From positions 232,128,001-232,192,000 of the forward strand of contig OZ024742.1 of NCBI GenBank assembly GCA_964016885.1: a stretch of 64,000 bases of DNA, given 5' to 3'. The notes beneath the pieces are model-generated. The model was not told the DNA's origin. It ran no database searches and saw only the letters and a program-made list of their open reading frames with translations. How positions within the stretch are numbered: the stretch's first letter is position 1; each line of letters opens with the position of its first letter. The stretch comes from Eledone cirrhosa (lineage: Eukaryota). The position numbers were made by a program, and so were the translations under genes. Shown in pieces: positions 20,596-56,977 of the stretch.

Positions 20596-21769
20596 ACATT
20601 TTGATTTTGTATGATTTCATTTTTCATATAACTCAATTTTCCTAACCATATGGTTGTTGAAGAGAATTGAATCACACACAAATAATCAATATAAAATACT
20701 GGTACTCGATTCTTTGGTGTTTGGGTGGTGAAATAATTGTAGTGATGCACAAAACTGCTTCAAACTTGAGAAACAAAGAAGCCGACTTAGAAGACAATAT
20801 AATCTGAGAATACAAGATCCAGAAGCATATTGTTCCCTAAGATTATAATTTGTTACCAAGTTTCAGCTTTCTAAACTAGGTACAACTAAAGTCTTACATA
20901 TTTTTACAATTCATTTAATTTTCATAGGAGAGGATAACCACTTTCTCATTTCAAGCTCCAGCATATTTGTTTTGTGAATGTTTGTGTTAAAAATATATTT
21001 CACTTATAATTAAGTGAAGCAAATTATTTTCAACTTAGATACAAAACTAAATAAAACATTTTAAGCTTGTCTTTGTCATAAATCAAAGCTTCTTGCTTAC
21101 TGAATACCAAGAATAGAACTGTTTTTTCGTTTCTTAACAAAATTCAAAACTAAAAAGAAATGGAAGTAATGAATACAAAATATAAGAGATAAATAACAGT
21201 TTATCGTGCTTAAAGCTAAAGTTCTGTACAAAGCTCTTCCAGTTTAATGAAAATGTTTCAAAATTATAATACTGGACTGAAATACAATATGAAGGAATGA
21301 AAGGAAAATGTAGAAATTTCCCAATTAACTGAGTGCAATAATGAAAGTGGCATGGATGTTTGGTTATTCTAGCTTTTTCAGATTTGTATAAGATCTCCTT
21401 ATATCAGACACTAAAAATGTTCACATTGAATTGCCACTTTGCATAAATGGTATGTGACTAACTTCGGATTTATTTTCAAAACAGTACAGCAAAATATAGA
21501 CAGAAAAGCAATGATAGATAAATGTATGACTTAGGGAATACTACTGTAAAATAGATTTGAGAAGAAAAGGTTAAGATAGAGTCATTGTGTTTGTTTGAGG
21601 TAATAGTGAATCTAGAAAATGAACTTTATTTTTGAATAAAGAAAAACACAAATTTTGGAAGTAATGATATGGTAATTGAAAGAAAGTTATTTGGATTAAG
21701 TGAGTAACAAGACACTTTACACTTATGTAAATGCAACATTAAAGCTCTGATTAAATGTATTTGATGGTC

Positions 21770-21897
21770 TCGGTCAGAGAGTCGTTGCTTCAGTTGTAGA
21801 ATTATTTCATGAACCTTTTTGGAAGATCCGAATTTCATGCCAGTTATATGAACAATTTGATCTTGTGTTAAGCTTATATGCTTTTGTCATCAATGCC
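21770..21897 (-). pseudogene. Relic exon for the C-terminal half of a SAM domain (1-nt frameshift); probably now the last exon or 3'UTR of MBTD1/Sfmbt
   Basis: tttctAG|GIDDKSI-(frameshift at 21875-21876)-SLTQDQIVHITGMKFGSSKKVHEIILQLKQRL matches the SAM pattern IDGxxLLxLT...GMKxGxxxKI. Confidence 0.75.
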
Positions 21898-22231
21898 CTA
21901 GAAATATAAAAAAATCATTCAGTAAACCCAAAAGATTGCAGTGACAGATTTATACTTTTATTTCTAAGAGTGAAGTTTATATTTTTAATCAAAGAACTGC
22001 CTGGGAGATTTAAATAATTTTGAAAATAATCAAGAAACTGAGGGACTTATAATATGAGTAATATAACACACTTTCTCATTATTAAGCTGGTGTTTTGAAG
22101 CAGATCTTAACAAATGTTCTTACATAAAATTATGATAGGTTTTTAGAAAAATAGAAATACTTTTAAATAAACAGCTCAGAATCATATTGACTTCAGGTAG
22201 TTTGGTAACAAAAAGGTTAAAAATGAAAGAA

Positions 22232-22580
22232 CATCATTCATTCATTTTCATTTCATTTTACGTCGACTTTTCCCTGCTTGCAAGGATGGGACGGGAACTG
22301 ATTCTGGCTTGATTTCTACAGCTGGATGCCCTTCCTCACACCAACCTCATTTACAGTGAGTGCTGGGTGCTTTTTTGCTGTGGCACCTCCACGACCACTT
22401 TGCAGTGGAATGATAGGGACCCCAGTCCCTATCATCTCATTTCTACAGCTGAGTAAACTGGAGCAATGTGAAATAAAGTGTCTTGCTCAAGGAAACAACA
22501 CATCACCCGGTCTGAGAATTGAACTCACAACCTTTCGATTGCAAAGCCAATGCTCTAACCAATAAGCCATGTGCCTCCAT
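22232..22580 (-). mobile_element. Second copy of the tRNA/RTE-tail SINE (one internal tandem unit fewer)
   Basis: Near-identical to 9952-10350 by direct comparison. Confidence 0.9.
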
Positions 22581-22649
22581 ATATAATTAATATCGCCCAA
22601 CTACTGTTAAATCTTTTGAAGTAACAAAGTCATATAGCAAATATTTCCA

Positions 22650-22725
22650 GATTAATTTTCTACTATAAAGCTCACAATGCGAGTAAAAAATGACAGACAT
22701 CATCAACAATCCACATTTCAGGATG
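22650..22725 (-). pseudogene. Relic N-terminal half of the SAM domain, out of frame with the preceding exon
   Basis: HPEMWIVDDVCHFLL-(frameshift)-HCELYSRKL matches the SAM start PxxWxVxDVxxFL....CxxY. Confidence 0.65.
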
Positions 22726-22853
22726 TATAGAGTAGCTGTGCTTATTTTCATGAAATTTAACAAGAAGCTGATGACCATTTAATACCAGGTTAAAATTAGA
22801 TGGAATACAAAGGCTTGCTCAATGAGTCACTCCTAACAGAACTCTTGGTAACT

Positions 22854-23050
22854 TTACATATAGTCATCGGTAGTTGTTAATTTACCTATATTGGCCTCAG
22901 AAGGTACAGATGAAATAATCTTTTTTGTATGATCTTGGACTTGGAAAGATGATGAGTGAAAGTCAGATATGGGTGTATGAGGACTCAACACCGGGGGTGC
23001 ATCTGATGCTAAACTCTCTTTGCGCTGTTGTTCAGGTTCAGCACGTGAAA
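22854..23050 (-). CDS. MBTD1: MBTD1/Sfmbt C-terminal low-complexity exon (stop at 22854, or donor after 22886)
   Basis: ttgtAG|(V)SRAEPEQQRKES...SEANIG. The phase-1 start fits the previous exon; a GTAAAT donor starts at 22885. Confidence 0.75.
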
Positions 23051-25035: not shown

Positions 25036-25209
25036 CTTTTGTACTTTTGGAATCCGTTTCAAAGAAGGAGTCAGTATTACTTTTGTCCAATAAAGGAGGT
25101 AATGCTGCAGCAACAGCTTCTGAAGTCAGCTGTACATGGGGCGGGCAAGAATTCAGGTTCTCAGAGCCATTTTGGTTAAGGGATCGGGTAGCTAATTTGG
25201 ACTTTCTTT
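25036..25209 (-). CDS. MBTD1: MBTD1/Sfmbt exon (post-MBT linker)
   Basis: AG|(K)RKSKLATRSL...DSKSTK|GTACTT, phase 1/1. Confidence 0.8.
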
Positions 25210-25749
25210 CTATAAAAATAAAGGAATGAAGAATACATGATATTAAACACAATGTGACATTGTATTAAATTTCAAATAAAAAATGAATTTAATATTTTTT
25301 TTCTTCAAGTCAAAATTGACTTATATAGGAAAAATAAATTTGTATAATAATTCATGTCATAAATATGCAAATTTATATAGAAACCTTAGTTTATTTTCTA
25401 TACTTATACATTTAATCAATTTTAGCTCATATGAATATAATTTCAAATATAAAACCAAGAACATTATATTAAACTAGTTGCTTTTTAGTTACTAAAATAA
25501 AAATTATATATCAGTTATGAATTTTGGAACAACCAATCAATAAAAACAATATTACCAATGGGATCCATATAGTAGAATTGGTAGTGTTTGGGAAAATGTC
25601 TAATGGTATAGAGTTTCCCCCCCTCATGTGTTCTAAAACTAAATCCAGCCAAGGTTTTCTTTTTGGAAATTTTGCACTCATCCTTTTAAGTTTGCATAGA
25701 TGAATTTTCTCCAGGACAGATTCTCTCCAGTTGTTTCGTTCTTTAACGA

Positions 25750-26250
25750 TATCGATGATGATGATGATGATATCATCTCCTTTGTGAGTTTCAGTATCAT
25801 CGGATCAACTTTCATCACCTCTGCCTAAATCTATTCTAGTCTTCCTTCTTCACCCAATGACCATCATCCATGCACATTACATGTCCATATCACCACAATC
25901 TTCTCTCTTCTATACTACTTATGATTCCTTATCTTCTCAGTTTTTCTCTCAATTCATCTGTTTCATCATTCATGCACAATGACATTACTTACATAAGAAG
26001 AGCATGTTTTTTAATTTCTATCCAGCCTTTGCACATCCTCCAGATTCAGCCTTCATGTTTCATTACCATGCACTATGTACACAGGCATCACAAAATCTAC
26101 TCTTTGCCTAGAGAGAGAATCCCTTTATTGCTAACAGAGGGTGTAGCTCTCTTAACTTTTTCTACCCTATTCTTATTCTAGTTGCTAATTAGATCACTCC
26201 ATTGCTAATTAGATCACTCAGGTAACAGAAGGTATCGGCTACTATGAAAC
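25750..26250 (-). mobile_element. Old RTE LINE 3' fragment
   Basis: Homologous to 19500-19890 (catcacatgtccatacca, aggtaacxgaagg) and next to a (GAT)n run. Confidence 0.75.
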
Positions 26251-26402
26251 TCTCCCTGGATTGAAAAATGTTTAACTATCTAGTGTAAAATAATTATAAT
26301 TCAAAATAATGAATAATAATGTTTCTGTCATTCAGAAGGAGAAAGATGGGAGCAATAACAAAATTAAGAACTTATTTAAAAAAAACAAGTATAACAACTT
26401 AC

Positions 26403-26486
26403 TTTTTCTCGGACCTTTGTAAACTTGTGTTTTTCCCCTTCTTTTCCGACAAGCAATTGATGGAGATAATGCAGTTGCCGAAGCCT
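26403..26486 (-). CDS. MBTD1: MBTD1/Sfmbt exon (basic, NLS-like RKRRGK...GPRK)
   Basis: tttAG|(E)ASATALSPSIACRKRRGKTQVYKGPRK|GTAAGT, phase 1/1. Confidence 0.85.
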
Positions 26487-27219
26487 CTAAAATAAGAGAA
26501 AAGCATAACATTGTGTAAGTTTCTTCCATTATAAGCACCTCAATTTTATTTAACAAAATTCTAGTTATAAAACCTATCAGAGTTAAAAGCATAAATCTTG
26601 AATTTACAATTACAACCAGTAATACATGGATTGAATTTAAATGAATATTAATGTCTGTGTATGCACATGCATTTGTAAATGAAATACAAAAATACCAATA
26701 ATTCAAGTCAAAAGTCTTTTACTCCAATATTTAACATATTTTTATATCAAACCAACTGAAACTGTCACTGGTTTTACATTATTAAACTGCTTCTTTTAAG
26801 GTATTTATATTTATAATTTTATGTAAAAAGCTTTGTTAAATTATATTCCAAACACTAGCTTAATGATGATTTGAAAATCATAGGTAGTGTCTTTAAAAGA
26901 GCTAACACTCTTAAGTTACAAGATCAATATTCTAACCCATGCTAACATGGAAAAATGACGTAAAACGGTGATGATGATGATAGTTTCAGTCAATTATATC
27001 AACACCATGGTATCTATTTATCTATATTCATTCAGTGGCTGAAGAACATTTTTGGGACAATGATTTTTTAAACCTGGTGTTGTGTCAAACATATTCAGAC
27101 AAATTCAGACACACAAACTTCTGCTCAGTTTCAGTTTACCAACCTGAAGCTATAACAGAAGACACTTCCTGAAGATTTAGGGTAAGCAAACAATTTAACC
27201 ATGCAGCCTTAGAAAATCA

Positions 27220-27471
<252 letters not shown>

Positions 27472-28480
27472 TTAAGGAATTTAAATATCCATTTAATATT
27501 TTATGCTACAAAACAACAAGTATTTTAAGGCAATTTCCCCAGTTAAAGCAGAAGTAATCTTTGTAGGCCCCACAATGAGCTTCACCCCGATCATGGAGTC
27601 TTTTTTGAGGCAATGTTTAATTGCCAAATGTCTTTTCTGATACAAACACTTCTCGTTGCCTTTTATGACACATGTATTGAATGCTACAAAATACTGTGTA
27701 TTGAATAGTATAAAATAAATGTTAAATGTTGGTAGAGTGATAAGCCAGTAGTTGACACAATCAAGAGAATATCCTCTTTTTGGTAATGGGACATACTGTA
27801 GCACATTTCCAAAACAATTTCTGTAGAGTGGGAAACATTTAAGTGCCTGGCAATGATAACAAATAACAATGGAAATCACTGTCTGAGATAGATGGAAGGA
27901 ACACTGTGGTAATGAGTTGCTTAGATCTTACATGCCACAACATAAGGTTCCAGTAAGACTTTCAGAGATGTTTTTTAAATACATTCAATGTTAAATTTTG
28001 ATTTTCATCCTCAACAAAAGGGAAACATCTTTTATACTGAATTTTTGTTAATTTTCCACAGTATTGAATATTCATTAAAACAAGTTGAATTTTTAAATTC
28101 TTATTTAATTAACAGAGTAAAAAGAAATCTTTGTTCCTTCTGACAAATGAATGTTGCAATCATTGATCAATGGGACAACATAATGCAATTAACATATAAG
28201 TAGCTGAGAAATTCACACACATGTGTACCATCACATTATTTACAGGGAGAATTAGCCCGATAGTGCATGGCAAGTATAGTAAAGAATGAGATTTTTTAAA
28301 GTAATGAATAGTTTCTTGTTTATAAACTATTAAAATACATTAAAATATAATAATATACTAAGAAATTATATTCTTGATCCTTAACTAAAAAGTAAAGCAA
28401 TTTAGAAAAGATAAAAGCTACCAAAATTCACAAAAACATTTTGTTTTCTTATACAATTCCAATAAAAAAAAATTACTAAC

Positions 28481-28545
28481 CTTGGTTCCATAAGATCAAC
28501 AGCTTCTAACTTCATACCAGCCTTAAACTTGTGTTTTGGAATTTC
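28481..28545 (-). CDS. MBTD1: MBTD1/Sfmbt exon, MBT repeat 4
   Basis: EIPKHKFKAGMKLEAVDLMEP, phase 0/2. Confidence 0.95.
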
Positions 28546-28689
28546 CTATTTAATAAAAATAAAATAGTAAATTTTCAACATTCTTACTTTTTATGTTTAG
28601 AAAGAATAAAGGAAAATTATTTCTCATAGTTTATAGACTATTTCAGAAAATGTGTTGTACAGCCCCCCAACCCCTCTCTCTATATATAT

Positions 28690-29490
28690 AGCGGTGGTGT
28701 AATTGTTTGCAAGATCTTTTTTTATATGAAATCATGTGTTGAAACAGATATTGTTATATTTGGGGAGGGTCATGTTGTCCTAATATTGCCAGAAGAAAAT
28801 AGTAAAACACATTCACTGTTTGGTTTGGTTTTCACTTCAGTATATTTTTATATTTGTATAAATAATTTAACTGGCAATCTATGTTTCATTGATTGCCAGC
28901 TAAATTATATGAGTACAAATATAAGTATAAATATAGTTTCTCAAAGTTCTTTCATTACACATATCTGTGACACCTTCACTGATTATCACGTTTCCATGTT
29001 TCTTCCTGCTGTGTTCCTGTTTTTTTTTAAATTAAATTTTTTGTTGTTGTCTGCTTCCACATGCGTTTGTGTGCATGTATTGTTTGCTGTGTGCTTGTAT
29101 GTTTATATTCTACCTTTGGTCACTAGTGTGTGTTTGTCTATGGTTGTTGTTATTCCATTCATGTTTTCTGTTCAGCCTAGGTTTTCTTAATTCTATTTCT
29201 GTAGCCTCACTAATTTGTCTAATTGTCGAGTTATTCCTATGTTTAGATAATATTTTAATTACTATGTTGTCTATTTTACCGACATGCCTTAGTCTGGCAT
29301 GTCCATATAGTACTGTCTTTTTGTCCTTTTAGTTCACTCCAGTGTTCATCAATCCTCTCTCTTATGTATGTCGTTATGTTTCTGCAAGTACCCTCTGTAC
29401 ATCTTATGCTATAGACTACATTTCTAGTTTTACAATGTATTTGTGGACTTACTCTACATATTACACATTTCTTATTTGTACAGTGGGTTT
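28690..29490 (-). mobile_element. Penelope-like element remnant (GIY-YIG endonuclease and 3' region)
   Basis: Manual translation: CKTRNVVYSIRC..C...YI(deletion)ERIDEHW, frameshift, then LYGHARLRH...RQISEATEIELRKPRLNRKHEW. Small hairpin at 28862-28908. Confidence 0.8.
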
Positions 29491-29558
29491 TCTTAAAGGG
29501 ATAAGTTTTACTGATCAGAGATTTTATGGTAGTTCCTGGTTTTTCTTAGAGCCTCTGG

Positions 29559-29765
29559 TTCACCTTCAGGAGTTGTATCCACGAACATGACACTCTGGTA
29601 TCTTTGGTTGTTATACCATGAGTTGGCTTTCCCTATCTTTTGCCCACTGTGCAGGAGAAAATCATGAAATAGCATCGATAATAACAGGGGAAAGATAGGG
29701 AAAGCCAACTCATGGTATGACAACCAGAGATACCATGTTTGTGGATGCAAACCCTGGAGGTGAAT
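29559..29765. repeat. Long inverted repeat (foldback/MITE-like)
   Basis: Core arms 29596-29640 and 29691-29735 pair at 43/45; outer arms extend ~30 bp further. Confidence 0.9.
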
Positions 29766-30071
29766 TAGGTAACCAATTTAGAAAGGCCCAAAGAAAAACC
29801 TAGTTAAACATTAAAGTGGTAGAGTAGAGATGCTTAACCTATTTTAAAAAATCATATTTCTGAGGATTACTAAAAGTCCAGTAAAACATGAACTTATAGA
29901 TTCATACTTCATTGTCAACCTATAGAAAGTCCCATGTGCAGTATGTAATTATATTTGTACATAGAAATCTTAATTACTATCTAATTTTGTATTTAGTTTC
30001 AAAACTTATATGTACTAGATAATAAACCTTATCCCAATCTACAAAGGCCTTCTGTGTAAATATAAACTTAC

Positions 30072-30151
30072 TTTGTCAAACAATCTTACGGGAGCTGCAA
30101 CAGAACTGGTTTCCTTGAGATATTCAAACCACTGGAATTGGTTCTTATATC
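30072..30151 (-). CDS. MBTD1: MBTD1/Sfmbt exon, start of MBT repeat 4
   Basis: GYKNQFQWFEYLKETSSVAAPVRLFDK, phase 1/0. Confidence 0.95.
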
Positions 30152-30384
30152 CTGAATATTAAAAAATATAAAACACAGCATAAACATTTTTACATCCATT
30201 TGATATTTACATAAATCATAGGAAAATGTGTCTTACAAAGGATTGTCTTTCCAATGTAAGCAAGTCTAATATAAAGTAAGAGTATGAGCTATTTTGAATC
30301 AGCTATTTAGAAATATGCTAAGAGGCCATCCACTTTCACAATGCAGTTGAATTGACTAAAAGCTCTGTCAACAATGTAAGGTGC

Positions 30385-31090
30385 TTATGCTGGTGCTACA
30401 ACAAAAGCCCTAAGTCCATCATGTAAGGTGCCATGCCAAAAGAGCACCCAGTCTGCCCTTGGGGACATGATAAAAGCACCCAGTCCAGCTTGTGGGGTGG
30501 TTGTGGTAGTGAGACACAACAATAAATGTAAAGTGATCGTGAAATGCAAAGAGCACCCAGCCTATTCTTGGTGACATGACATAAAGCACCCCCCCACCTA
30601 GCTCACACTGTAAAGTGGCCATTGCTGTAACGTGACAGTGACACAACAAAAAGCACCCACCCCACACTGTAAAGTGGTCGTTTTGGTACCACAACAAAAG
30701 GTGCCCAGTTTACAATGTAAAGTAGTCATTTTGGTGCTATGACAAAAAGTGCCCAGTCCACACTGTAAAGAGGTCGTTTTAGTGCCACAACAAAGTGTTC
30801 AGTTCACACTTTAAAGTGGTCATATTGGTAACACAATAAAAAGCACCCAGTTCACACTGTAAGGTGGTCATATTGACGACATGACAAAAAACAATGTCCA
30901 CAATGTAAAGTGTTTCTGATGTCATGATAAAAAGTGCCCACCAACAATGTAAATGTGGTTGGTGTTAGGAAGAGCATCCAGCTGTAGAAACAAAGCCAGA
31001 AACAGTTCTGTATGAGCAAGGTACGGTCAAATGAAAAACTCATCTAATTCATACCTGCATAGAAAAATGGTCATTAAATGATAACAATGA
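30385..31090 (+). repeat. Expanded ~41-bp tandem array (AAAAGCACCCAGTCCACACTGTAAAGTGGTC-like) inside an RTE/SINE 3' tail
   Basis: About a dozen diverged units, followed by gttggtgttaggaagagcatccagctgtagaaac and the RTE-type terminus. Confidence 0.8.
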
Positions 31091-32280
31091 AATAACTCAC
31101 AAACTTTTGAATCATGAGTTTATCACTTATTAATTCCAGAACTTATTTGAAACCAATCACTAGTCAACTGCTATGTTAAGTATCCAAGAATGTATCAATA
31201 AATTATCAATTTTGATTGTGAGTATTCTCTCTCTGAGATAAAGTTTTGATTTCTGTTGGAAGTAACTTTGCTTATTTACCGGCCAGAATTCTCTACCTCT
31301 TTCTGTTAAAACTGGCCACTCATACTGATGTTAAGGTATTGTTCTCAAAATAAATACTTTCAAAATCTCATAGATTCAATATTATGTGAGACATTATGCG
31401 AGGTAAAGCCTTTACCATGAAAGTATAATAGTATATATAGAGTAATGTGAATGCTAAAGGGTTAATTGTGGGTATATTTAGTTTGGCTCTCTATTATTGA
31501 GGTCTTTTTTTTTCACAATGATTTGTAAATAGTTAAACGTGCGTGTGAGGATTGAGGTTAACCCATTTTATACCAACCTGCCAAGAAACGAACTGGTTTT
31601 GTAAAACTAAACCATCAATTTTAAAGAGTTCCTATCTAAATTAAAGTTTTTCAAAATAATTTTATATAAGAACCTTTTGTTGAGTTATATTTACAAATAT
31701 CATCTTAATAATGCAATAATTAATAAATTTAGTAAATCCCTGCAATTTAAACTGGCCATAATTGACCAGAATTCTCTCAGCTCTTTCTGTTCAAACCAGC
31801 CATAACCAGCTGCTCATACTTATGTTCAGGTATTGTTCTCAAAATAAAAAATATCAAAATCTCGTAGATTCGATATTATGTGAGATAAAGCCATGAAAAT
31901 ACAATAGTAAATATAGAGTAATGTTAACTAATTCAAATACAGTGTATTTAATTAGAAATACAGTAATGAAAGGATTAAGGCAGATTCCAAGAGACAGTAA
32001 TAGATATCAGATTAGTACTAACATTAATAGTGAGTATTAACATTAATAGATGTTTTCCTCAAGATGTAAAAATAAAGTAAGTTATATATTATTTCAAACA
32101 CTATTTTTTAAAACCAGAAACTTACTTAAATGATTCCAAAATCCCTATTAAAAGAAACAAACCATGGAATTTAAGTTGTAATCCCCTAGTATGGAATTTA
32201 GTGATTTAGTAAAAACAGAACTCATTAAACATGAAATAATTAGTTTCAAAGCGATTGTTAAAACAAAAAGAATTACTTAC

Positions 32281-32428
32281 CTCGAGGAGGAGTCAGCTCT
32301 AAATTGTTTACTTCACAAAAACTTACAGGAAAAATGCAAGGAGATGTTATATGATAACAAAACCAATCAGAGCCATTTTGTGCAAGGGAGCCATCGATAC
32401 CAATCATTAAATAATTATTTTTTAAGAC
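32281..32428 (-). CDS. MBTD1: MBTD1/Sfmbt exon, MBT repeat 3
   Basis: VLKNNYLMIGIDGSLAQNGSDWFCYHITSPCIFPVSFCEVNNLELTPPR, phase 0/1. Confidence 0.96.
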
Positions 32429-33991
32429 CTACAACAAAAATGTTAAATATATCTAGAAGATAAAAATGTGTGTAACTTTAAAAGACAATTTCATGTTGAA
32501 TTTGCGAGTAAGAAAAATTTCAAATTTTACAGTATACATAACAAGGCAAATACAGATACAACACTGATTTTCTGGCATCTTTGCTGTCAACCCGTACCAA
32601 ATTATCTATTTAACCAGACTAACAGAAGTTACATAATAATTCTGGGTAAATTCCTAGGAAACCGCCAATATGCTATCGATAATTATTTCACCATGAAACC
32701 TGTACAACACATTATTATCATTTTTATTCCTTGAAAACACATTATAAAGGCAGAAACATTCTCCCAACACCTTAGCTATAATAATATAAACGTGCAAATG
32801 TTTTGGCACTTGCACTGGGCTTGGAAGCCATAATTAGTAGTAAATGTAAAATTGGTTAAAAATTACCCAAATTCACCAAAACTGCAGCAATCACCACTAT
32901 CCTATTTAGGTGATTGAAAATAACACATAGTGATGCCTGTGACCACCTAGTAAATTATAGTAGTGGGTTATAAAAAATTCAAGTGTCCATTCCTAATTAC
33001 ACCCAGATTAAAAGAATAGTGAAACCAGTCATTGCCTGAAAATCAGTGTTAGGCCTGTATTCACAAAATCTTAAAAAATTTCAATTTAATGTTAGAATTT
33101 TCAACTGTGCTTTTTTAGGATTTCATTTACATTATATCAAACTTAGTATAAATAAAAATTTCAAATACAGATTAAGAACACTGTTTAAATATCCAATTAA
33201 TTTGAGAAATATAATGTTTAACCCTTTTGACTGAAACCACCCTTGTTTCTACTCGACAAAACTGTTTATCTTAAACTATATATTTATCTGTGTAAGAATC
33301 TTTGTTGAGTTATGTACCAAACACCAGCTTAATAATGAGAACATTAGTTATGTTTGTGATCATTTTCAAAATTATTTGAAAATTATAGGCAGTATTTTTC
33401 ATTAGAAATATGGTAACAAAAGCAGGAAGCTATGTTATGCAGTTCAGTTCCTTTCATTCACTTTGCTACTCAGCCTGCTTTTATATCACTAATGATTATA
33501 TTAGAAGCAGTGTAACTAAGGACTTTTCACTGCTCCATCATTAATTGAATATCCATTTTTCCATGCTGGCATATGGCAGCTCTGGTTTTTAATCATTTTT
33601 TCTCTAAGCTTCATCATTGAGAGATTTGGCTCCGTACAACCTCTTTCCATGTTACCCATCTATTACAGTCAGTACACAGCACTATTTGACATATACTCTT
33701 CCTCTGTAACTTCAATTCTTATTCAATATACTGCAAGACCAATTTAACAAACTATTTTCCCATCTCCAGATCACTGGTCATATGCATAATTTTCAAATAA
33801 CTTTCCTACAAGCTGTAACAAACTCCTTTTTTTTTTTTATATCAACTACCCTTTCATAGTATGTTAGCTAACATTAATTTATCAAAAAAAAAAAAAAACA
33901 AGTATAGCAGAAGTAAAATACATATTACAGGTAAAAAAACAAACTAAATTCTAATTATTAAAAGATTAATTATTCAAATGCAATAAATTAC

Positions 33992-34105
33992 CTTATTAAC
34001 AGAAGCTACACAAATGGCCGATAGATTAAGAGGATCAATGGCTTCTAACTTCATACCAACTTCAAATGCAAGCTTGGAATTAGAAAGAACAGGAGGCTCT
34101 TTTTC
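33992..34105 (-). CDS. MBTD1: MBTD1/Sfmbt exon, MBT repeat 3
   Basis: EKEPP...FEVGMKLEAIDPLNLSAICVASVNK, phase 0/0. Confidence 0.96.
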
Positions 34106-35355
34106 CTAGAAAACAAATAAATTTAGCAGATGAAAACCAGTAATGATTTGCACTAATAAAAATCATTTAGTTAATTGTTATACTTTTTCACCCACTGTTT
34201 GTACTTTCTACATAGTACTAAGGTCTTACCAATTCCTATCCCTTTTGTGATTCTGTTTCACTTTTAATTGAATCATCATCCTTTTATGTCCATCTTTCAA
34301 TGCTTGGGTTGGACAGATTTTTTTCCAGCGCCCACCTCTGTTCATCATGCTCATCATTTTGTCTTCCTAGAAAGGTTGAAGAAACATGTCTTGTTCAATA
34401 CATTCCATTTTGGGCATGGTTTTTATAGCTAGATGCCCTTCTTAAATCCAAACACTTTACAGAGTGTACTGCTGGTGACATGATAAAAGAAGCAGCACAG
34501 TTAAGCAATGATGATAACAATAGTGATGATGACTGAGTGCATGGCACCAGCATCAGAGAGGTGGTCATGTCTACATCCTTTGAAGGCAATGTGACCTATA
34601 GAAGAACCATTGTGAATGGGTGAAGGGACTTACAGTATGAAGGATGGAACATACATGTCAACGATAGTGAACTTAAGGCTTTGGAAGGACATTCTAACTA
34701 AAGGTGTGCTGTGGGAACAAGCCCAGGACCATGTGGTTGTGAGGCAAACTTGTTGAAATAAATAACAACCATCATCGCCATCATTTAAAGTCTGTTTTCC
34801 TTGCTAGCAAGGGTTGGATGGATCATCACAGACCAAGTCAGTAGTATTCAAGCAAAGCTAGTGACCACTTAGGTTCTTGCACTCAGACATGTGCTCAAGT
34901 GGGCCAGGGGCACACATCTTGCTTACAAACAATTTTCATGCTCTACTGAGTGCAGTTTATTGTGGCACCAGCACTAGAAAGGTTATCAAGTTTTTGACAC
35001 AGCTGAACAGTCCTTCCAACTCTTTGTTGGGCATGTTTCTATAGTTGGATGCCCTCTCTATCACTAACCACTTTATTGAGTCTACTGGATGCATTTATCA
35101 TGTAAATCACCAACACTAGAAAAGTTGTCAAGTCTTTGGCCCAACTAAAATGTCCTACTGACCCTTTGTTTGTAAAGTTTTCTACAGTCAGATGCCCTTC
35201 TTATCACCAACAACAAACAAATAATAATCACTATCATCGTTTAACATCTATCTTCCACGCTAGCATGGGTTTAGATGGGAATTGTCCCACTTGTGGCAAG
35301 TTTGGTCAGGAGACCCGTGGCTCACTCGTATAGGACTATAAAAAGATATACTTAC

Positions 35356-35435
35356 TTTATGAAACATATGTGGTACAGCATCAAAACTGTCATATTTCTG
35401 TAATGAAATCTTGGCAATACAATCAGACTTGTATT
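35356..35435 (-). CDS. MBTD1: MBTD1/Sfmbt exon, linker between MBT repeats 2 and 3
   Basis: ttttcAG|(E)YKSDCIAKISLQKYDSFDAVPHMFHK|GTAAGT; supplies the required phase 1 to 0 bridge. Confidence 0.9.
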
Positions 35436-36381
35436 CTGAAAATATATTTTAAAAAATCGATAATTCATCCAAATACTTTAAATTTATGTTTTGTTCTATC
35501 TAGCAGTTCTTATATAGAATTACTGCCAATCTATATGACAACCCTGCAATGTAGCTTGCAGTGTCCACATCCTGCTTATACATTCTTTTGGGGTATGACT
35601 CCTGTGGTTAAATGACTTTATCATCAACAACATTGCGATATACTGGGTGCATTTTAACATGCAACAAGCAAAAGAGAGACTTCCATGTGAAGAGAACTAA
35701 AGAGTTCCTTCTATCCAGTATCAGTTCAACTTTGAAGTTATTGCCTGCCTAAACATACAATCTATGATGCAGCTTACAGAATGCATTCATTCATACATTC
35801 CATTTTTGGTGGGATTTCTCTCCCATCCCCAACCACTTAATAGTGTATACAGGGTGTACATTTTATCCTGCTACATACACTAGGAAGCCTGTAAATGTGG
35901 CAGGGCTGAGAAGTCCTCTCTACTGCAAAAAGAGGTTCAACTATATTTGCAGATTTTTGTAAAAACATGTGAGAAATAGTTTATTAACCCTAAATATATT
36001 TATCATTTTTTTTTAAATTTCAACGTAAGAACACCAATCCACTGAAACTTGTCTATAAGATTATATGATGGTTTAATGCTATTCTCTGAAATATTCATCC
36101 TTAAGGAATATATGGCAGAGGCAAGGATTAATACATTTTAGCCTAGGCAAGATGCAGTTCAGATATATTTCAGAACAGGATATCACTGATGCTCTCTACC
36201 TAATAAGTAATAAGATAATGACCAAAGAAGCACTTAGATGCAATCTGGTGGTCGTTATGAAAATCATGGACAGATAAATGGCATGTAAGCCGTATACTGT
36301 CATATACTTTTCAATATACATAAGTATTTTACTGTCTGTTTTGAATGTGAAGATTATACCTATCATTAGTGTATTTCATTA

Positions 36382-36465
36382 TTGTTAGTGTAATGTGGTA
36401 AATTAGGATTCAAAAGTTATGACCATATAACTTTTGGATCTTAATTTAACACATTACACTAGCAA
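36382..36465. repeat. Hairpin with 39-bp arms and a 6-nt loop
   Basis: 36382-36420 vs 36427-36465 pair Watson-Crick at 35/39. Confidence 0.9.
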
Positions 36466-36496
36466 CAAACAATGCACAAGGGAAAGAATGCTCTTG

Positions 36497-36537
36497 ATTC
36501 AGACATGTTTCACTCTTATTAGAACTCATCAGCAAAC
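36497..36537 (-). ncRNA. Minimal type I hammerhead ribozyme motif (Penelope-type), sense to the host gene
   Basis: guuug-CUGAUGA-GUUCU-aaua-AGAGU-GAAA-CAUG-UC-ugaau; palindromic ACAUGU stem III; stem I is weak and G:U-rich. Confidence 0.55.
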
Positions 36538-38115
36538 ATTGAGTAACCTCAAAACTTAATCCTTTTGATACTAACCTGCCCCTGATTCCACAATACAAAA
36601 CTATTTTTATTGTTTAAATTTATCTAAAAATCATCCACCACAATTTTGTGAAAGAACCTTTGTTTAATTATGCTCAAAAGAATAGCTTAATAATGAGAAG
36701 GTTAGTTATATTACTAAGTCCCTTAAAATTCTTTGATTTTTTTTTTCAAAATGATTTGAAAATCATCAGCAGTGTCTTTCATTAGAAATATGGCAATGAA
36801 AGGGTTAAAAGACGGGAGAAAAATATTAAGGGATGCTTGCTGTATGGAAATTAATAGTAACTTGGACACTAGTATATTTGATGTTATAAACCAATAAGGA
36901 ACCACATCATTAGTATATAGTATTATATTTGCACTTAAATTAAAGCTGAACTCTGTCATCTTTGGTTAATTGCTTTTCACCATCAACTGTATAAAGTTTG
37001 ATCTTCTATTGCACTGGTTTTATACATATATGAGTGAAGGTGAGAGCGACAGTGTCAGTGGAAGAGACACTGAAGTACAAAGCTCTAAGCAAGCTAAGAT
37101 TTATTTTAATTTTACACTGTGTATGTGCTTGTGACTACTCACCAGTTGTATGAGGTCGTTGACAACATGGCAGTACATCAGTCCATGTCATTTTGACAGG
37201 TACATGTATAAATACACAAATCACCACCATCACTACCACAATGATATATGCCAAGACAACATGGGAGAATGCTTGTGCTATCTTGCTAACCAGCAGTTAT
37301 GAGTATTGCAAAGGCATAGTGAATAAATAACATCATTACTTTTAGTTTGAATTCAGCTTGATGACCATCAAAGACCAAATTGATTGAAACATAGTTTAAT
37401 TCTAAATGTAGAGTCTAAAGGTGAGGTTAATATCTGGAAAATTATGTTATTTCTTATATTGACCTCTTTCAATGGATTTTTCAATAATATTTTGGAAATG
37501 TCTACATTCCAACCATAATTTATGCTCTCATGGACCCATTTCAACTCAATGATAATTCATCATCATCATTTTATGCAGATTTTCCATGCTGGCATGGATT
37601 AAACATGTTGTTGCAATGAAAGGCAAGTTAAAGGACCATGTGTTGCTGAATTTTGACATGGTTTCTATGGCTGGATGCCCTTCCAAACAACAATCCCTTT
37701 AAAGAGACCATTGGGTGCATTTTATTGTGGCACCAGTGTCATCATTTCACAGAGCCTACTGGGTGCATTTTATCCAGACACCAACACTACCACTTACACT
37801 TTTCTAAGTAGAATAATTTTTATATGTCAATTCAATTATCTTATTCTCTTTTATAATTATGTTTTACATCCAAGCATGGAAAAAAGATAAAACAATGTCA
37901 ATGATGATTGTTGAATGCTTCACCAAATATAAACATCTGCTGTAACAATAATTTCCTTTCTAAATTCTGAGTGATACATTTGTTATCAGTTGGATATAGA
38001 ATAGCTTCTTTATTAATCACTAGCTGAGGTACCCAGCTTCGTCAAGGTTAACAAATGATAAGAGAAGACCGGCAGAAGAGACAACGTCTGTATTGAATGC
38101 ATTGTCTTGTTTACA

Positions 38116-38142
38116 GTGTGTGTGTGTATGTGTATGTATATA

Positions 38143-38177
<35 letters not shown>

Positions 38178-38188
38178 GTGTACGTGTG

Positions 38189-38222
<34 letters not shown>

Positions 38223-38227
38223 CGTGT
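38116..38227. repeat. Compound (TG)n/(TA)n microsatellite
   Basis: Seen directly; similar tracts at 59037-59280, 60248-60315 and 60617-60722. Confidence 0.95.
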
Positions 38228-39084
38228 AATCCACCGTTGGAATCGGAGACATAGGCCACGAAACACGATCATCACTGACAACGAACTCAGAGAGAATCCC
38301 TTATGGTTGATTCCCAACCTGCTAGAAATAGCAGTCAGGTTGGTTAGCATACATGGTATGTCTTTCTTCTTCTTTGGTGTTATAAAATTAGTACCAATAA
38401 ACTTTCCTGGATATACTCTTATCCCAATCCTGTACATACTTTCCGATTGTCACTTTGTTTTTTTCGTGTGATACGCGAAGGAACCAACCAACAAACATCT
38501 CTCTTTTATTTGTTCATTCAAAATATTTTTCAGCTAATTCTGTCTTACAATATAAATCAGCAATCGTTATATAATGTTTAAAACATATGAATAGCTGCGA
38601 TATATGTACCATATCAATCAAAAACGATATGAGAATTGAATACCATACTAAAGCGCCACTAAGCTTGCTAAGAACCTGCAGATAGAAATGTTAATAAATA
38701 CAATATTTGGCTTGGGTAAACTTTAAGATGTTCTTTCATTGTAGGTTTCTTTTCTCCTTCTCTCCTCTTCCTTAGCTCGCCCTAGAGCATCCTACATACA
38801 ATTGACTATGGTTTCCCCAGATGAAGGCCAGCCACTTTTAGAGTTTGACCCTGAGCTTTGTTGATGGTAATCGCGAAGCTTACGCTCTCTGTTGCTCGAG
38901 TAACACATTTTCTTCTGGAAAATCTGATCTTGCGGCCAGGCTAGGACTTTTTGGGTGGCATATCGGCAGTAACAATGACGATAAGCCGTCTGTGCTTTCG
39001 TGAAATAAATACGTTTGTTTACATTTTATTTTTGTGTATGCAAAAATATCTGTACACGAATAGATAATTATATATATATATATA

Positions 39085-39261
39085 TAGAAGTGGTTACACA
39101 ACAGTTAGTTCACCATACAGAGAAAAATTGTTTCACCTTAGCGGATCCTCAGCTCGTAATGGACATGTTCCGTATAACTATGTCCATTACGAGCTGAGGA
39201 TCCGCTAAGGTGAAACAATTGTTCTCGGTATGGTGAACTAACTGTTGTGTAACCACTTCTA
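39085..39261. repeat. Near-perfect palindrome: 82-bp arms (80/82) and a 13-nt spacer
   Basis: 39085-39166 is the reverse complement of 39180-39261 except at 39119/39227 and 39125/39221. Confidence 0.97.
39184..39233 (+). ncRNA. Minimal type I hammerhead ribozyme motif (Penelope-type); mutated mirror copy at 39113-39162(-)
   Basis: ccauuacgag-CUGAGGA-uCCgcuaaGGu-GAAAC-aauu-GUU^cucgguaugg; stem I is 4+4 bp with a 2x2 internal loop; palindromic AAUU loop III. Confidence 0.65.
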
Positions 39262-39340
39262 CCTAAATCGTCCCATGGACTGAGTGCTCTACCACTACGG
39301 ATATTACCTTCCAGTGTTCTACCACTATATATATATATAT

Positions 39341-39753
39341 ATTAAAATAACAGATTAAAGTTTAAGCAAAGAATCACTGCTTTCACCCTTAATAGGATCT
39401 TCTGAAACTAAAAAATCAATCTGTGAACGCAGAAGTAAGTATTTCAAAAAACGTTGTAACCGAAAGAAAACAGGAAGATGATACTTTGCTTCGAATGTTG
39501 TATAACCGGAAGTGTTGTATAACAGGAAGCCGTTAGGAATGTTGTATAACCGGAAGTGTTGACATTTGAAATTTTAAAGAAGTGAATATTCAAATAAGTC
39601 TTTAATCTTTTAACAAAATGCAGTAGACAAAAATACCCTCACTTTCTTACTTGGAAAAAGTTACATCTATGGTGCAAATTTGGTGCCATTTGGTCCAGCC
39701 GCTTGGCGGAAAGTTTAATACTTATATACAGCTGTCAGCTTTATAGTATAGAT
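39341..39753 (+). mobile_element. Non-autonomous Helitron/Helentron-like (HINE) element with internal short tandem repeats
   Basis: Internal repeats of tgttgtataaccggaag; 3' part gtgcaaatttggtgcc...ccagccgcttggcgg hairpin...ctttatagtatagat, the same terminus style as 479-733. Confidence 0.55.
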
Positions 39754-40506
39754 TGTGTCTTGTGAGAATTAACCAAAATATTATTGCACTATTTTGATTA
39801 TAGTTAATAATTATTTCTATTCACTTAAGAAGTAAAATTCATCATCATCATCATTGTTTAATGTCCATTTTTCCATGTTATCACGAGTTGTCCCGTGAGT
39901 CAAGCCAGGTCAGGTCAGAGGACCATCTCTTGCTCATACAGAACTGATTTTGGCTTGGTTTCTATGGCTGGATGCCTTTCCTAACACCAATTACATTTAC
40001 AGTGTGTGCTGGCCGCTTTTTGTTATGTCACCACCATGACCACTTTACAGTGTGAGCTGAGCGCTTTTTGTCATGACACCTACACGTCCACTTTACAGTG
40101 AGGACCAGGTACTTTTTGTCATGTCACCAACATGACCACTTTACAGTGTAGGCTTACATCCAGTACATACATCATCATGGCATGGGTTGGAAGATGCTGC
40201 CACGGACTAAGACTAGATGGGCCATGGTACAATGTCTTGCTCATACATTCTATCTTTAGCATGGTTCTACAGTTGGATGCCCTTCCTAATACCAACCACT
40301 TTACAGAGTGTAATGGATGAATTTCATTTGGGCATTAACACAACCACTTACAGCATGTACTAGGTGAATTTGATTATAGCAACACTAGAAGGGCCATTGT
40401 GATATTAGCAGGGTGAAGAGAGGCGGTATTGTAAAGATGGGAAAAATTACAAGTAAGACAGGGAAACATATGTATATGGAACAGAAAGGAATAATCTGGA
40501 ACTTAC

Positions 40507-40603
40507 CAGCACTGGCAGTAAGCTTGTGTCCGACCTGCTGTGACCAACCAACTGGGTGGATAAGTGGGGATTTGAAATGGCACCAAAACTCGTTCGTCTC
40601 ATC
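40507..40603 (-). CDS. MBTD1: MBTD1/Sfmbt exon, end of MBT repeat 2
   Basis: DETNEFWCHFKSPLIHPVGWSQQVGHKLTASA, phase 0/1. Confidence 0.96.
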
Positions 40604-42169
40604 CTGAGAGTAAAATAGCAGCTGGTGAATACACCTAAGCAAGCTAACTAGACTGTGGTAGAGACAACCACCTTGAAAGTAGATATGAAGACCATAATAT
40701 GACATTTCCAGTCAGCTCTTAGAATATTACCAAAAGTCAGCACCAACTAAAAAGTAGAAAAACAAGAAACGGTTCAGGAAATAAAGAAGATCCTCCTTAC
40801 TGATGTATAAAAATAGCTACAGTGAAACAACAAACATCATGCAAATGGATGAGCTTTTCCACAAATGAAACTAAAAGGAACCTTCAAAGAGTAATATACT
40901 AATTCATAATATACCACAACACTATGAAAATACTATGGTAACCGATAACTAATTACCAAAATAAAGCCAAATTGACTTCATATGAAAGGAAATATGCTAG
41001 TAAGAAAAATCAGAGCAGAAATATACTAGCAAGAAAATTCAGAGAAATACTATACAAGCAAAATTTCAAGATGAAAAATCTAATATTTCTTTAAAGTATA
41101 ACTGACAAGCTCTTACTACTAAGAATGAAACTGATTTGTAAACAAAAACTTAAATATAACACAGGATTATATAATCATAAAAATGAGTGGAATTACAATC
41201 CAACATATTTAGCCCTTTAGCATTTACATTACTCTATATTTACTATTGTATTTTTGTGGTAAAGGCTTTATCTCACATAACATTGAATCTATGAAATTTT
41301 GATATTTATTTTGAGAACAATACTTTAACATCAGTATGAGTAGCTGGTTACGACCAGTTTGAACAGAAAGAGGTGAGAGAGTTCTGGCTGGATATAGCTG
41401 GTTTAAATACAATTTTAACAACTTTTCTAAAGAATATTTTCCAAAAGTACCAATAATCCATCATATATATATTTGGATATTTAAAAGAGAAAAGACAAAG
41501 AGATATCTAAAACCAGTTGAATCTATCATAAATGTGTGTGTGTGCAGTAAAGCAAAGTTTTATTTTATTTTTAATGGGTTAATTACTGGTCCACTAAATT
41601 TCTGACAGCAGAGAGTGACATGGGAGTGCCACCAGTTTTTCAATTCAAATCCTTTACATATATACATCAGTGAAAGATGTATATATTCACAAACCCTGAA
41701 AATAATGTGAACTTTTGACAATAAAACCCTGTCTAAGTGCACAAATACACACACTACATAACAACAAAATGCCATCTGAACCATTATTATGAATCAAAAA
41801 GGAATTTTCTAGTGAATCAATTGAATCCTGACCTGTTGACCCCTCGCACCACACACACGCACACAAACACTTCCTCCATCACCACCCCACCCCCATAAAG
41901 AAATTTTGACAGAAAATTCACATATGTTCTAACTTCCCACAGAATATGAAAACTTTTTTAATATTTGATAAGATTGACATACCAATTGAAACCAGTAATA
42001 TTTGACAAAATTTAAATCCATTTAACATAACAGTTATAAAAATATTCATTGCCGGATTAAAGAAAAAATAATCTTTAAATATACACCTATGCTTTTTCAC
42101 TTTTACTTTTTACCAAAAATCTTTGATTTGTATAAAACTTTACCCCCATTTCAACTATATATTTCAGTA

Positions 42170-44495
42170 AGCAAGAGAAAGAACGAGACATACAGGAAGG
42201 TGTGAACAAGAAAGGTCTGGAAGCTAAAAGACCTTTCATTAAAATATAAATTTCGCAAAGCCCTTCAAGATGTATATGACGAAAACGAAGACGATTTAGA
42301 GTTGTATGACATAGATGATAACTGGAATTTCTTGCGTGACAACTTACTGCAGGCTACTGAAGAAACTTGTGGTTGGGGCAGAGGTTCAATCAGAAAGAGT
42401 GACCTTGTGCTGGAACAGCATGGTAGATAGGACCATTAGAGACAAAAGACTGGCATGGAAGGCTTGGAAAAAGGGTGGGAGTAGAGAAAGATACACAGCC
42501 GCCAAGAGAGAAGCTAGACATCAAGTGTACTTAGCACGCAGGGAGGCTGAGAGTAGGAGGTTTGCCAATGTTCTGCGACGGGAAGATCAGAGACTTTTAG
42601 TTTTCTGCATTGCAAGGCAGTGTGTCAGTGCAAATATGGATGTTGTTGGAGATAAGTGTGTCCGGAATGATGCCGGTGTACTTAGTGTCTTGAATGATCA
42701 AAAAAGGAGGCCTGGAAATGTTATTATGAGAGACTGATGAATGTGGAGAACGAATGGGAGAGAGAAATTACCCCCAGTAGACCCGACAGAGGGACCAGCT
42801 ATTGAGATTGACGAATATAGGTACAAGAGGCAATTAAAGAAATGAAGAATGGTAAGGCTGCTGGACCGTCGGGGATAGTTGCTGAGATGCTGAAGGCACC
42901 AGAAGTTGGCACTAAACTGGTTGTACGCATCATCAACCAAGCTATTTATGGTGGTGTCATACCCAAAGACTGGTGCAGCAGTATTCTCATAAATTGATAC
43001 AAAGGTAAAAAGGATGCTCTAGATAGGAGCAATTATAGGGGCATAAAGCTGATGGATCAGGTTATGAAAGTGGCAGAGAGAATATTAGCGCAACTGATTA
43101 GAGAAAGGGTCAAATTAGATGAGATGCAGTTTGGTTTTGTGCCTCGGAAAAGTACAACAGATTCCCTCTTCTTAGTGAGGCAACTACAAGAGAAGTTATT
43201 AGAGAAGAATAAGCCACTATACTTAGCCTTTGTTGACCTAGAGAAGGCCTTTGATAGGGTACCCCAATCTGTCATCTGGTGGTCCCTAAGGAAACTAGGT
43301 GAAGAGGAATGGCTTGTGAGGACAGTGTAAACTATGTACAGGGGTGCTGTCAGTAAAGTGAGAGTAGGAATGGTGTTTAGTGAGGAATTCCAGATACAAG
43401 TAGGTGTACATCAGGGTTTGGTCCTCAGCCCGCTCTTGTTCATTATAGTCCTCCAAGCCATAACAGAGGAGTTTAAGACTGGATGCCCATGGGAACTTCT
43501 CTATGCTGATGATCTGGTTCTTATAGCAGAATCAGTAGAGGAGTTAGAGAATAAATTCTGGCTATGGAAACAGCAGTTGGAATCAAGAAGACTGAGAGTG
43601 AACATAGCTAAGACAAAAGTGTTGATAAGTAGAAGAGAGGACAATACTCTGATTCCATCAGGGAAATGGCCATGTTCGATATGCAGAAAAGGAACTGGCA
43701 TAAATTCTATAAAATGTACACAATGCAGATCTTGGGTACACAAAAAATGTAGTGGGATAGCAGGCAAACTAACAGGTAGGGAAAACTACGTATGCAGTAG
43801 ATCTACATGGAAATTTGGGAGTAGTAATCGTAGTGATAGATACATTTTTCCAATGCAGGTGGGTTCTATAGAAGTGGTTGATAGCTTCCAGTACCTGGGT
43901 GATCAGATTAGCATGGGAGGGGGGAGTTCCAAGGCCATAGTATCTAGAATAAGGACGGGTTGGAAGAAGTTTAGGGAGCTGCTTCCTCTGTTGACAAAGG
44001 GTTTCTCCCTGCTTATGTAAGGACGGTTATATGATGCTGGTGTGAGATGCATAATGCTGCATGGTAGTGAGACATGGGCAGCAACTGCAGAGGATATGCG
44101 ACGGCTGGAGAGAAATGAAGCAAGTATGCTCCTTTGGATGTGCAATGTCAATGTGCGTGAACGACCAAGCATAGACGAGTTGAGAAAGAAACTGGGTATA
44201 AGAGGGATAAGTTGTGGTGTGCAGGAGAGAAGGCTGAGATGGTATGGACATGTGATGTGCATGGAGGATGACCGCTGGGTAAAGAAGTGCCAAGAAATTA
44301 CAGTAGAAGGAAGACGCAGTAGAGCTAGACCACAAAAAACATGGGCGGAGGTGGTGAGAGCAGACCTCAGATCGCTGAAAGTCACAGAGGAGATGATGAG
44401 ATGAGGGACCCTGACAAATGGAGAGATGCTGTGCTGACCGTCCAACCCTTGCAAGCAGGGAAAAGCGGACATAAAATGTCGATGATGATGATGAT
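42170..44495 (+). mobile_element. 5'-truncated RTE-clade LINE (~2.3 kb, RT region to 3' tail) with stops and frameshifts
   Basis: NYRGIKL, QFGFVP, DLEKAFDRVP, LLYADD, FQYLG, LHGSETW, RRLRWYGHV and a (GAT)n tail. Confidence 0.95.
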
Positions 44496-47400: not shown

Positions 47401-47869
47401 TTGGTAAAATTGTAAGTCACTTGTGTCAATGTTTTCTATAATAAGCTCAATAAATATCACTATTCATGATAATAACAAAATCAGGAATTATTGTGAGTTC
47501 ACACTTATATATGTTTAGCTGGTCTCCCATGAGGTTACATCTTATAGTGGGTGTTTTAATTATAATGGCCCAAGTTCTATCATATCACACTTTTCTAGTG
47601 ACAAAAGGCAGAATTTGAACTCAAAATGCTGAGCCAGAACATATAACTGATACTCTAAAAATTCTGTCAATCCTCTGTTATGGATGGTACAAGATTTATT
47701 GAATCCTAAAAGGATGAAAGGCTGGTACAAGATTTATTGAATCCTAAAAGGATGAAAGGCTAAGTAGACTGAAGCAGAATATGAGCTAGAACAACTACTG
47801 CAGAACACTTAATCCAGTACATGTGGCAGATGCAAAAGGATAGTTAGTTGTAAGAGCATTTTCAAAACA

Positions 47870-48490
47870 AATATTTTCCAATCCCTGGAAAGCGCCATAG
47901 AAGTGGCTGAAAGTTTCTTCCACCTAGGTGATCAAATTAGTGGAGGAGGCTGCACCAGTAGCTAGGTTAAGAACAGGACGGGGAAAGTTCAGGGAGCTAC
48001 AACCCTTGTTGGCAACAATAGGTTTCTCTCTACGAAGGAAAGGTCAGCTGTATGATGCTTATGTGTGAAGTGCAGTATTGTATGGTAACGATACATGGGT
48101 AATAAATGCAGAGGATATGTGAAGGCTAGAGAGAAATGAAGTGAGGATACTCTGATGGATGTGTGTGTAAATGACAAAGTGTGGATGAGCTGTGATAAAA
48201 GCCAGATATAAGGAGAATCAGATGTAGTGTGCAGAGAAGAAAATTACACTGGTATGGTCATGTAATGCATAGGGATGGTGATCATTGGATGAAGAAGTGG
48301 CAAAAAATCCCAGTGGAAGAGAGCTACAGCAGAGGGAAAGCAAAGAAGACTTGGACAGAGGTTGTGTTACTGAAGCTCGCAATCGAGTTAATGAAGGATG
48401 ACAAGTAGTGGGATGCTATGCTGGAAAAAAACTTATCCAACCCATGCAAGCATGGAAAAATGGAGGATGTAAAACAGTGATGATGATAAT
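47870..48490 (+). mobile_element. Old RTE LINE 3' fragment
   Basis: Homologous to 43860-44495 (atagaagtgg...cctaggtgatcaaattag...aacccatgcaagcatggaaaa). Confidence 0.85.
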
Positions 48491-51961: not shown

Positions 51962-52159
<198 letters not shown>

Positions 52160-56795: not shown

Positions 56796-56977
56796 ACAAG
56801 GGAATAATGGTAATGTTACAGAACATAAAAGCTGTACCATATCTAAAGACACAATAAAATAATAGCTGTAGTAACAGTTAAAAACGTGGATAGTAGTCAA
56901 ATACTTAAATTAAAATATCAATGCTGAAATAATGAAATATAATAACTATTAACTGAGTGTAATGATTAAATACTTAC

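Follow-up and report, generated by a model that had tools for sequence, protein, structure and literature searches.

The window (the whole stretch of DNA that was analysed, 64,000 nucleotides) contains the octopod Sfmbt/MBTD1 gene, all features of which lie on the minus strand. Coding exons 1 to 17 extend over 25036..59003 and were delimited by tblastn, AG/GT bounds and MBT matches; exon 18 (22886..23050) represents, in its present form, the 5' part of a long ancestral exon and ends in phase 1. Each of the 18 exons from 59003 to 22886, whose bounds were taken from the tblastn alignment to the Octopus protein, has an AG acceptor and a GT donor, and together with the last exon they form a single open frame of 718 amino acids with SEANIGH and a stop at its end. 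The 18 upstream exons are thus all intact, as the original prediction held. The start ATG falls outside the 18-exon model, in an upstream exon.

The best database match is the Octopus bimaculoides MBT domain-containing protein 1-like (719 amino acids), which has FCS and MBT domains and no SAM. Compared with the 719-residue Octopus MBTD1-like proteins, the window protein shares 655 identical residues with O. vulgaris/sinensis and 660 with O. bimaculoides, which points to an octopod other than these species. The gene encodes an FCS zinc finger, four MBT repeats and a basic linker: the zinc finger is a Pfam match (PF21319) on the 91%-identical Octopus protein P0122, to which window exon 2 aligns at that place, and MBT is matched by Pfam over four stretches of P0122 and in five exon matches (PF02820) at the window locus. 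The GWCA clamp motif for the Pho/YY1 spacer is present. No SLED match was found at the window gene, and in the genome SLED occurs only on C9 and C11. Judged by sequence, the gene is the single pro-orthologue of MBTD1/L3MBTL2 and a member of the Sfmbt/MBTD1/L3MBTL2 orthogroup. It lacks the C-terminal SAM that characterizes the fly-type Sfmbt, and would not be placed with the SFMBT1/2 type (4MBT+SLED+SAM), SLED being absent.

Several related genes were seen elsewhere in the genome. A second 4MBT gene at C11:33.59-33.61 Mb (L026, L027) has SLED, an intact SAM on two exons and GWCA in repeat 1, and is a candidate substitute. There is also a Scm-like gene with 2 MBT repeats, SLED and SAM at C9:53.02-53.03 Mb (L029, L030), a Ph-like SAM at C24:20.60 Mb (L003), another Polycomb-type SAM at C15:22.09 Mb (L006) and a 3-MBT locus at C2:342.3 Mb; these last four have open frames where inspected, and their names are our reading of the architecture. 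No intact copy or retrocopy of the Sfmbt SAM was found elsewhere in the genome, the best other match being 32-37% identical to the decapodiform SAM. The window itself also holds broken reverse-transcriptase-like frames at 19318-20590 (minus strand), 42315-44401 (plus strand) and 8118-8716 (minus strand), which, from their translations, we take to be probable LINE fragments.

The present splice donor of exon 18 (GTAAAT, phase 1; 22880..22885) is found 230 nt upstream of the one formerly used and opens a last intron of 988 nt (GT..AG; 21898..22885), which holds the N-terminal half of a SAM remnant and a very high-copy repeat. The last exon starts (21887..21897) at the ancestral phase-0 acceptor, where the old frame read GID; because the present donor is in phase 1, this acceptor is now read as G-H-TGA-TGA. 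The 3' UTR follows, traced here over 21500..21886, with AATAAA at 21630 and 21474. The splice is seen directly in a contig of run X4 (record 17, depth 38.9) that joins 21500-21896 to 22885-23052 with 0 differences and holds 374 letters beyond 21500; the join of 22886 to 21897, offered beforehand as one of two possible ends of the protein, is therefore the one found in the spliced contig. In the same run the intronic remnant has a depth of 2.1, and exon 17 (25036-25209) is covered at its exact bounds. X4 is not on record as RNA, but is likely to be RNA, as inferred from its exon-bounded contigs; the splice evidence comes from this one spliced run of one study, and contigs drop rare isoforms. 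If the present donor were unused, the protein would stop as DDYM at a TAA (22854..22856), the codon at which O. vulgaris P0125 ends. Another contig of X4 runs across intron 17 (window 23023-23886), and the Octopus annotations P0123, P0124 and P0126 have further SAM-less ends, where intron 17 is read through or the acceptor is shifted. Constraint on the C-terminal tail seems to be loose.

The repeat in the last intron occupies 22155-22580, about 70 nt past the dead donor described below, and its contig depths add up to millions. To the eye, its head resembles a tRNA; ARAGORN, run over the window, found no tRNA. The insertion may differ in a second octopod (organism B), since the contigs of that organism stop aligning at 22147 and 22641.

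Both halves of a SAM domain are still readable downstream of exon 18, and the peptides quoted in the original prediction were found in place. Block 1 (HPEMW...CHFL; 22684..22731), now intronic, is identical to the decapodiform SAM at 11 of 15 residues; block 2 (HCELYSRK; 22656..22679) ends at the ancestral exon boundary; and the C-terminal half (21764..21880), which carries the end-helix surface (…TGMKFG…), now lies in the 3' UTR. A SAM HMM was built from intact Sfmbt SAMs of invertebrates, 27 in all and the majority of them molluscan, and run on six frames of the whole window. Its top two matches, at 21886-21782 (iE 5.2e-9) and 22728-22684 (iE 0.012), are in the correct order and on the correct strand for a split SAM; the next match has an iE of 2.2. 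Frameshift-aware alignment to the decapodiform SAM (P0008), the check proposed at the outset, gave scores of 72 for the N-half and 115 for the C-half, which none of 200 shuffles reached (maxima 37 and 36, respectively). In a PDB search with the C-half alone, the top match was the fly Sfmbt SAM 5J8Y (E=0.005). Over 62 aligned residues, the closest of the 27 intact SAMs is that of the decapodiform (38/62), with the other 26 at 10-33. The remnant thus is a significant match to an Sfmbt-type SAM. A Pfam scan of the three raw remnant-bearing open frames, taken singly, returned 0 families and no SAM_1 or SAM_2, and the 41-residue C-half had 0 matches at E<=0.001 among 1.84 billion representatives; both blanks are expected, because the remnant pieces are short and broken. 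Among the residues of the end-helix interface (fly D1177, M1180, K1186, V1187, G1188, L1191 and K1192), D, K, G and K are kept; the L1191 column holds Lys, where 27 of 27 intact SAMs have Leu or Ile, and the interface is not intact in the remnant.

The lesions are distributed along the whole region. Between the DDYM stop and block 1, the linker (22732..22853) is decayed. It contains stops and, since the SAM N-half is in another frame than exon 18, one frameshift or more; frameshift-aware alignment recovered no alignment of 22853-22732 to the decapodiform linker. Blocks 1 and 2 are separated by a net 17-nt frameshifting deletion (22680..22683), which leaves 4 nt at a place occupied by 7 residues in every one of the 27 intact SAMs. 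A net 1-nt deletion (21876..21885) brings the C-half into the reading frame of the spliced ORF, after both TGA codons. Frameshifts had been placed at about 22858, about 22683 and 21876: the last two stand, as the net -17 nt and the net -1 nt in 21885-21876, and the first is demanded by frame arithmetic between 22853 and 22731, but it cannot sit at 22858. The apparent want of a GT donor after the first half could be traced to a definite site, TTAATC (22650..22655, beginning at 22655), which is the dead ancestral donor. This assignment rests on three paralogous SAM genes (the Scm-like gene on C9, the SFMBT-like 4MBT-SLED gene on C11, and L006), 3 of 3 of which have a GTAA phase-0 donor and resume at EIDG after AG; the window resumes at GID.

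Contigs of runs X1 and X3, which represent one sample and possibly the source of the assembly, aligned gap-free to 21500-22135 and 22556-23886, differing by 0-1 substitutions, and those of X4, a different sample, matched 21500-21896 and 22628-22808 with 0 differences and 0 gaps, spanning both deletions and the dead donor. Splice paths were enumerated with GT-AG introns, up to 3 introns and donors in 22900-22600; none of the 4183 carries all three SAM blocks. That the breaks are assembly errors, or that a hidden splice path restores an uninterrupted SAM, is hardly credible: X1 and X3 may be the assembly's own sample and 84 of the 4183 hypothetical paths do join block 1 to the C-half, but the different sample is exact over both deletions and the donor, a second octopod has further stops, three Octopus proteomes end identically, and the middle of the domain is missing from all 84 paths.

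In the second octopod (organism B, run X5), decay has gone on. It has TGG>TGA at the SAM Trp that is invariant in 27/27, TTA>TGA at a Leu of the N-half, and CAA>TAA; the C-half shows T>N and K>R changes; indels in this organism were inferred from offsets only. Among the substitutions listed, coding exon 18 has 2/165 (1.2%), the UTR 9/398 (2.3%) and the intron 26/293 (8.9%), with p=1.4e-4 for UTR against intron and p=0.49 for the SAM C-half against the rest of the UTR. Coming from the substitutions listed, these rates are provisional. As the C-half is no more conserved than other UTR, its preservation looks like UTR constraint.

Another possibility is that a small amount of translation still reaches the C-half, the tandem TGA being read through or recoded (A-to-I), so that the protein would gain the SAM half that carries the end helix. 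Coleoids have extensive RNA recoding, and the C-half, in frame behind TGA TGA after the 1-nt deletion, is open for 86 codons. However, an in-frame outcome has a 1-in-3 chance of arising, the spliced contig reads both stops with 0 differences, and organism B adds a third stop, TAA, at the next codon, besides the two amino acid changes. Moreover, the Lys of the remnant occupies a column that forms part of the hydrophobic Scm interface, the C-half is indistinguishable from the rest of the UTR in the comparison above, and half a SAM is unlikely to fold. We regard translation of the C-half as very improbable.

The loss is found beyond the window. O. bimaculoides P0001 and O. vulgaris/sinensis P0121/P0122 have the SEANIGH end, and P0125 ends at the unspliced stop; the sharing of the loss with Octopus species is read from these protein ends. 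Two further members of the Octopus cluster have the lengths of the SEANIGH proteins. The SAM HMM matches none of the 8 members of this cluster, and all 10 of the decapodiform one. A quick tree was computed from 34 FCS-4MBT cores selected among the matches of the first search, most vertebrate rows and several of molluscs being omitted, as were L3MBTL2, fly Sfmbt and paralogous MBT families. In it, the window gene is sister to Octopus (100, starred), both are sister to the SAM-bearing decapodiform (100, starred), and all are apart from chordates (99, starred). Since three Octopus species end alike, a second octopod is decayed and the decapodiform SAM is intact, the loss appears specific to octopods and independent of that in chordates, and its independence is well supported by these sequences. 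The original prediction of an independent loss in this lineage was therefore right as to independence, but the loss is not peculiar to this genome, being common to three Octopus species and the second octopod. Its timing is loose, because the decapodiform sampling is one 90% cluster and no cirrate, vampire squid or nautilus sequence appeared in the homolog searches, which returned 3 clusters with the octopus C-terminal region and 2 with the decapodiform SAM region; the 3 clusters held no further octopods.

On the same tree, the SAM-less label requires 5 changes (octopods, chordates, Haliotis+Gigantopelta, Liolophura and Priapulus), at least 2 of which are forced by starred branches. SAM-less orthologues are thus annotated in about five lineages, the non-octopod cases being known as annotations. 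At the protein level, SAM is absent in every entry obtained from Haliotis (three species), Liolophura, Gigantopelta and Priapulus (P0013, P0153, P0154, P0018, P0155, P0020, P0156, P0157, P0033). Chordates as a whole show the SAM-less architecture: the domain is missing from the amphioxus and tunicate entries too, so that the chordate loss appears older. Convergence on the vertebrate architecture, as had been proposed, holds in that the form without SAM is the same, but it is recurrent (abalones and Gigantopelta, a chiton, a priapulid) and not a single event. In Babylonia (P0016 versus P0159) and Lineus (P0188 versus P0034/P0187), SAM-less and SAM-bearing isoforms are both annotated. The Sfmbt SAMs of Aplysia and pulmonates (P0023, P0032, P0036, P0038, P0049, P0056) are strongly diverged, with 18-21 of 62 residues identical to the decapodiform, and are without the GMK-G motif of the end-helix surface; in these species Scm binding was possibly lost without loss of the domain.

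RefSeq already has the SAM-less Octopus protein, in annotations that carry no mark of a lost domain. In the literature searched, from which most subscription papers were absent, no description of the octopod SAM loss was found; octopus is not mentioned in the accessible part of PMC10638273, and 10 supplementary files contained no match.

The reading that we favor, and consider highly probable, is that splicing of the gene now ends the protein ahead of a decayed SAM, the loss having likely occurred once, in an octopod ancestor, and that Sfmbt has likely lost with it the direct contact by which, in flies, it docks onto Scm/PRC1. The phase-1 donor at 22885 is joined to the old phase-0 acceptor of the SAM exon at 21897, ending the protein at NIGH and turning the N-half into intron and the C-half into 3' UTR; this splice is observed, as are the lesions, the dead old donor and the intact SAM of the decapodiform. 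Messages whose stop is located in the last exon escape nonsense-mediated decay; here the stop comes after the last junction, in a last exon with two codons, and the message would therefore be expected to escape. The unspliced stop, 198 nt before the old donor, would trigger decay under the old splice. Two orders of events may be considered: either the new donor came first and freed the SAM from selection, or the stop came first and the donor was then favored as an escape. Thereafter, the N-half would have changed as fast as intron sequence does, and the C-half, being UTR, less quickly. Constraint would still act on the FCS+4MBT part, probably because of roles that need no SAM, such as those which L3MBTL2 (variant PRC1.6) and MBTD1 (TIP60/EPC1) have in vertebrates; YY1/Pho-spacer and methyl-lysine binding are further candidates. 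The locus also records the loss of a terminal domain without death of the gene, through a donor shift to another phase at the last intron.

In the fly, according to Frey et al. (PMC4863741), the Sfmbt SAM binds the Scm SAM via its end helix, is needed for repression and forms a bridge, defined by structure, that leads to PRC1 from the only Polycomb complex able to bind DNA; they also show that Sfmbt without SAM is not wholly inactive, some repression being left, possibly through an N-terminal Scm contact. According to Alfieri et al. (PMC3828522), an earlier study reported Scm binding that does not require the SAM. The Scm link of fly Sfmbt and the lack of SAM in L3MBTL2 (stated by Kang et al., 10.1101/2022.04.29.490092) agree with the background originally put forward, and for MBTD1 the vertebrate entries have no match to the SAM HMM. 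Compared with the fly Sfmbt SAM, that of the decapodiform aligns at E=5.8e-22 and keeps K1186, G1188, L1191 and K1192. As the interface is kept there, the Sfmbt-Scm contact was probably present in the coleoid ancestor.

Whether the loss changed Polycomb recruitment in octopods is about an even question. The loss may be real but quiet: another 4MBT-SAM protein or an N-terminal contact could cover for it, or the PhoRC-PRC1 link may never have mattered in molluscs. Compensation is plausible, because the octopod keeps a Scm SAM, in the Scm-like gene on C9, and the 4MBT-SLED-SAM paralogue on C11, which has GWCA, both SAM exons open and, by eye, all nine mid-loop residues of Frey et al.; this SAM differs, however, at the D1177 and M1180 positions (by eye). 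As shown by Alfieri et al. (PMC3828522), YY1 binds MBTD1, L3MBTL2 and SFMBT2 weakly; the weak in vitro binding of the YY1 spacer to SFMBT2 speaks for a quiet loss. Mammalian SFMBT1/2 are reported in distinct non-PcG complexes (PMC13449738), which speaks against it; the same paper states that L3MBTL2 must act by other mechanisms. Fly Sfmbt co-purifies with PRC1.6 and Tip60 subunits, according to Kang et al. Of 20 aligned orthologues, 18, the decapodiform among them, have Pro at the fly Ser633 position, as does the low-affinity MBTD1, and the recurrence of SAM-less orthologues in about five lineages also fits a quiet loss. On the other hand, the Scm-binding surface of the decapodiform is strongly conserved to the fly, implying selection in the sister lineage. 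For this functional step only, we give a quiet loss slightly less than an even chance. Separately, convergence on vertebrates at the YY1 pocket was examined and found no support: there is little difference in this pocket between octopus and decapodiform, and the Pro at S633 is general.

Returning to the loss of direct docking as the favored reading, a wider and tentative extension, which we think rather doubtful, is that the Sfmbt SAM tether between YY1/Pho and PRC1 has been shed repeatedly, each time through fixation of a SAM-less isoform that was already latent, like those annotated in Babylonia and Lineus. Vertebrates manage without the Sfmbt SAM bridge; octopods would, like them, recruit canonical PRC1 with no sequence-specific nucleation by Sfmbt, and cuttlefish would keep the fly mode. 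If true, this would provide a natural paired experiment within coleoids, octopods versus cuttlefish. In any case, octopods and decapodiforms are related closely enough to be compared for an effect of the loss of the bridge on PRC1 targeting.

Among known systems, Drosophila Sfmbt, a subunit of PhoRC (5J8Y, 4C5E), resembles the octopod gene in its FCS + 4MBT composition, its GWCA motif and the Ser at the S673-equivalent position, but in the octopod the SAM is not encoded, Pro is found at the S633 equivalent and the remnant has Lys at the L1191 equivalent. The SFMBT1/2 type, represented here by the C11 gene, has four MBT repeats, and its Polycomb-type SAM is interrupted by an intron at the same phase-0 point; it is nevertheless a separate paralogue with SLED, its label being a reading of architecture. 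Vertebrate MBTD1 and L3MBTL2, both top PDB matches of the decapodiform orthologue, likewise combine FCS and 4MBT without SAM, whereas the octopod loss appears independent and its SAM remnant is still readable. The nearest SAM-bearing relative is the decapodiform, cuttlefish-type Sfmbt (cluster of CAE1316915.1; P0008/P0128), in which the SAM is intact and the stretch from exon 18 to the old donor measures 195 amino acids, versus 395 nt in the window. Finally, the Octopus MBTD1-like proteins (XP_014773582.1, XP_029638661.1 and CAI9725140.1) have the same ends, either NIGH and stop or the unspliced 9-residue tail, and differ from the window protein in sequence, with about 91% identity.
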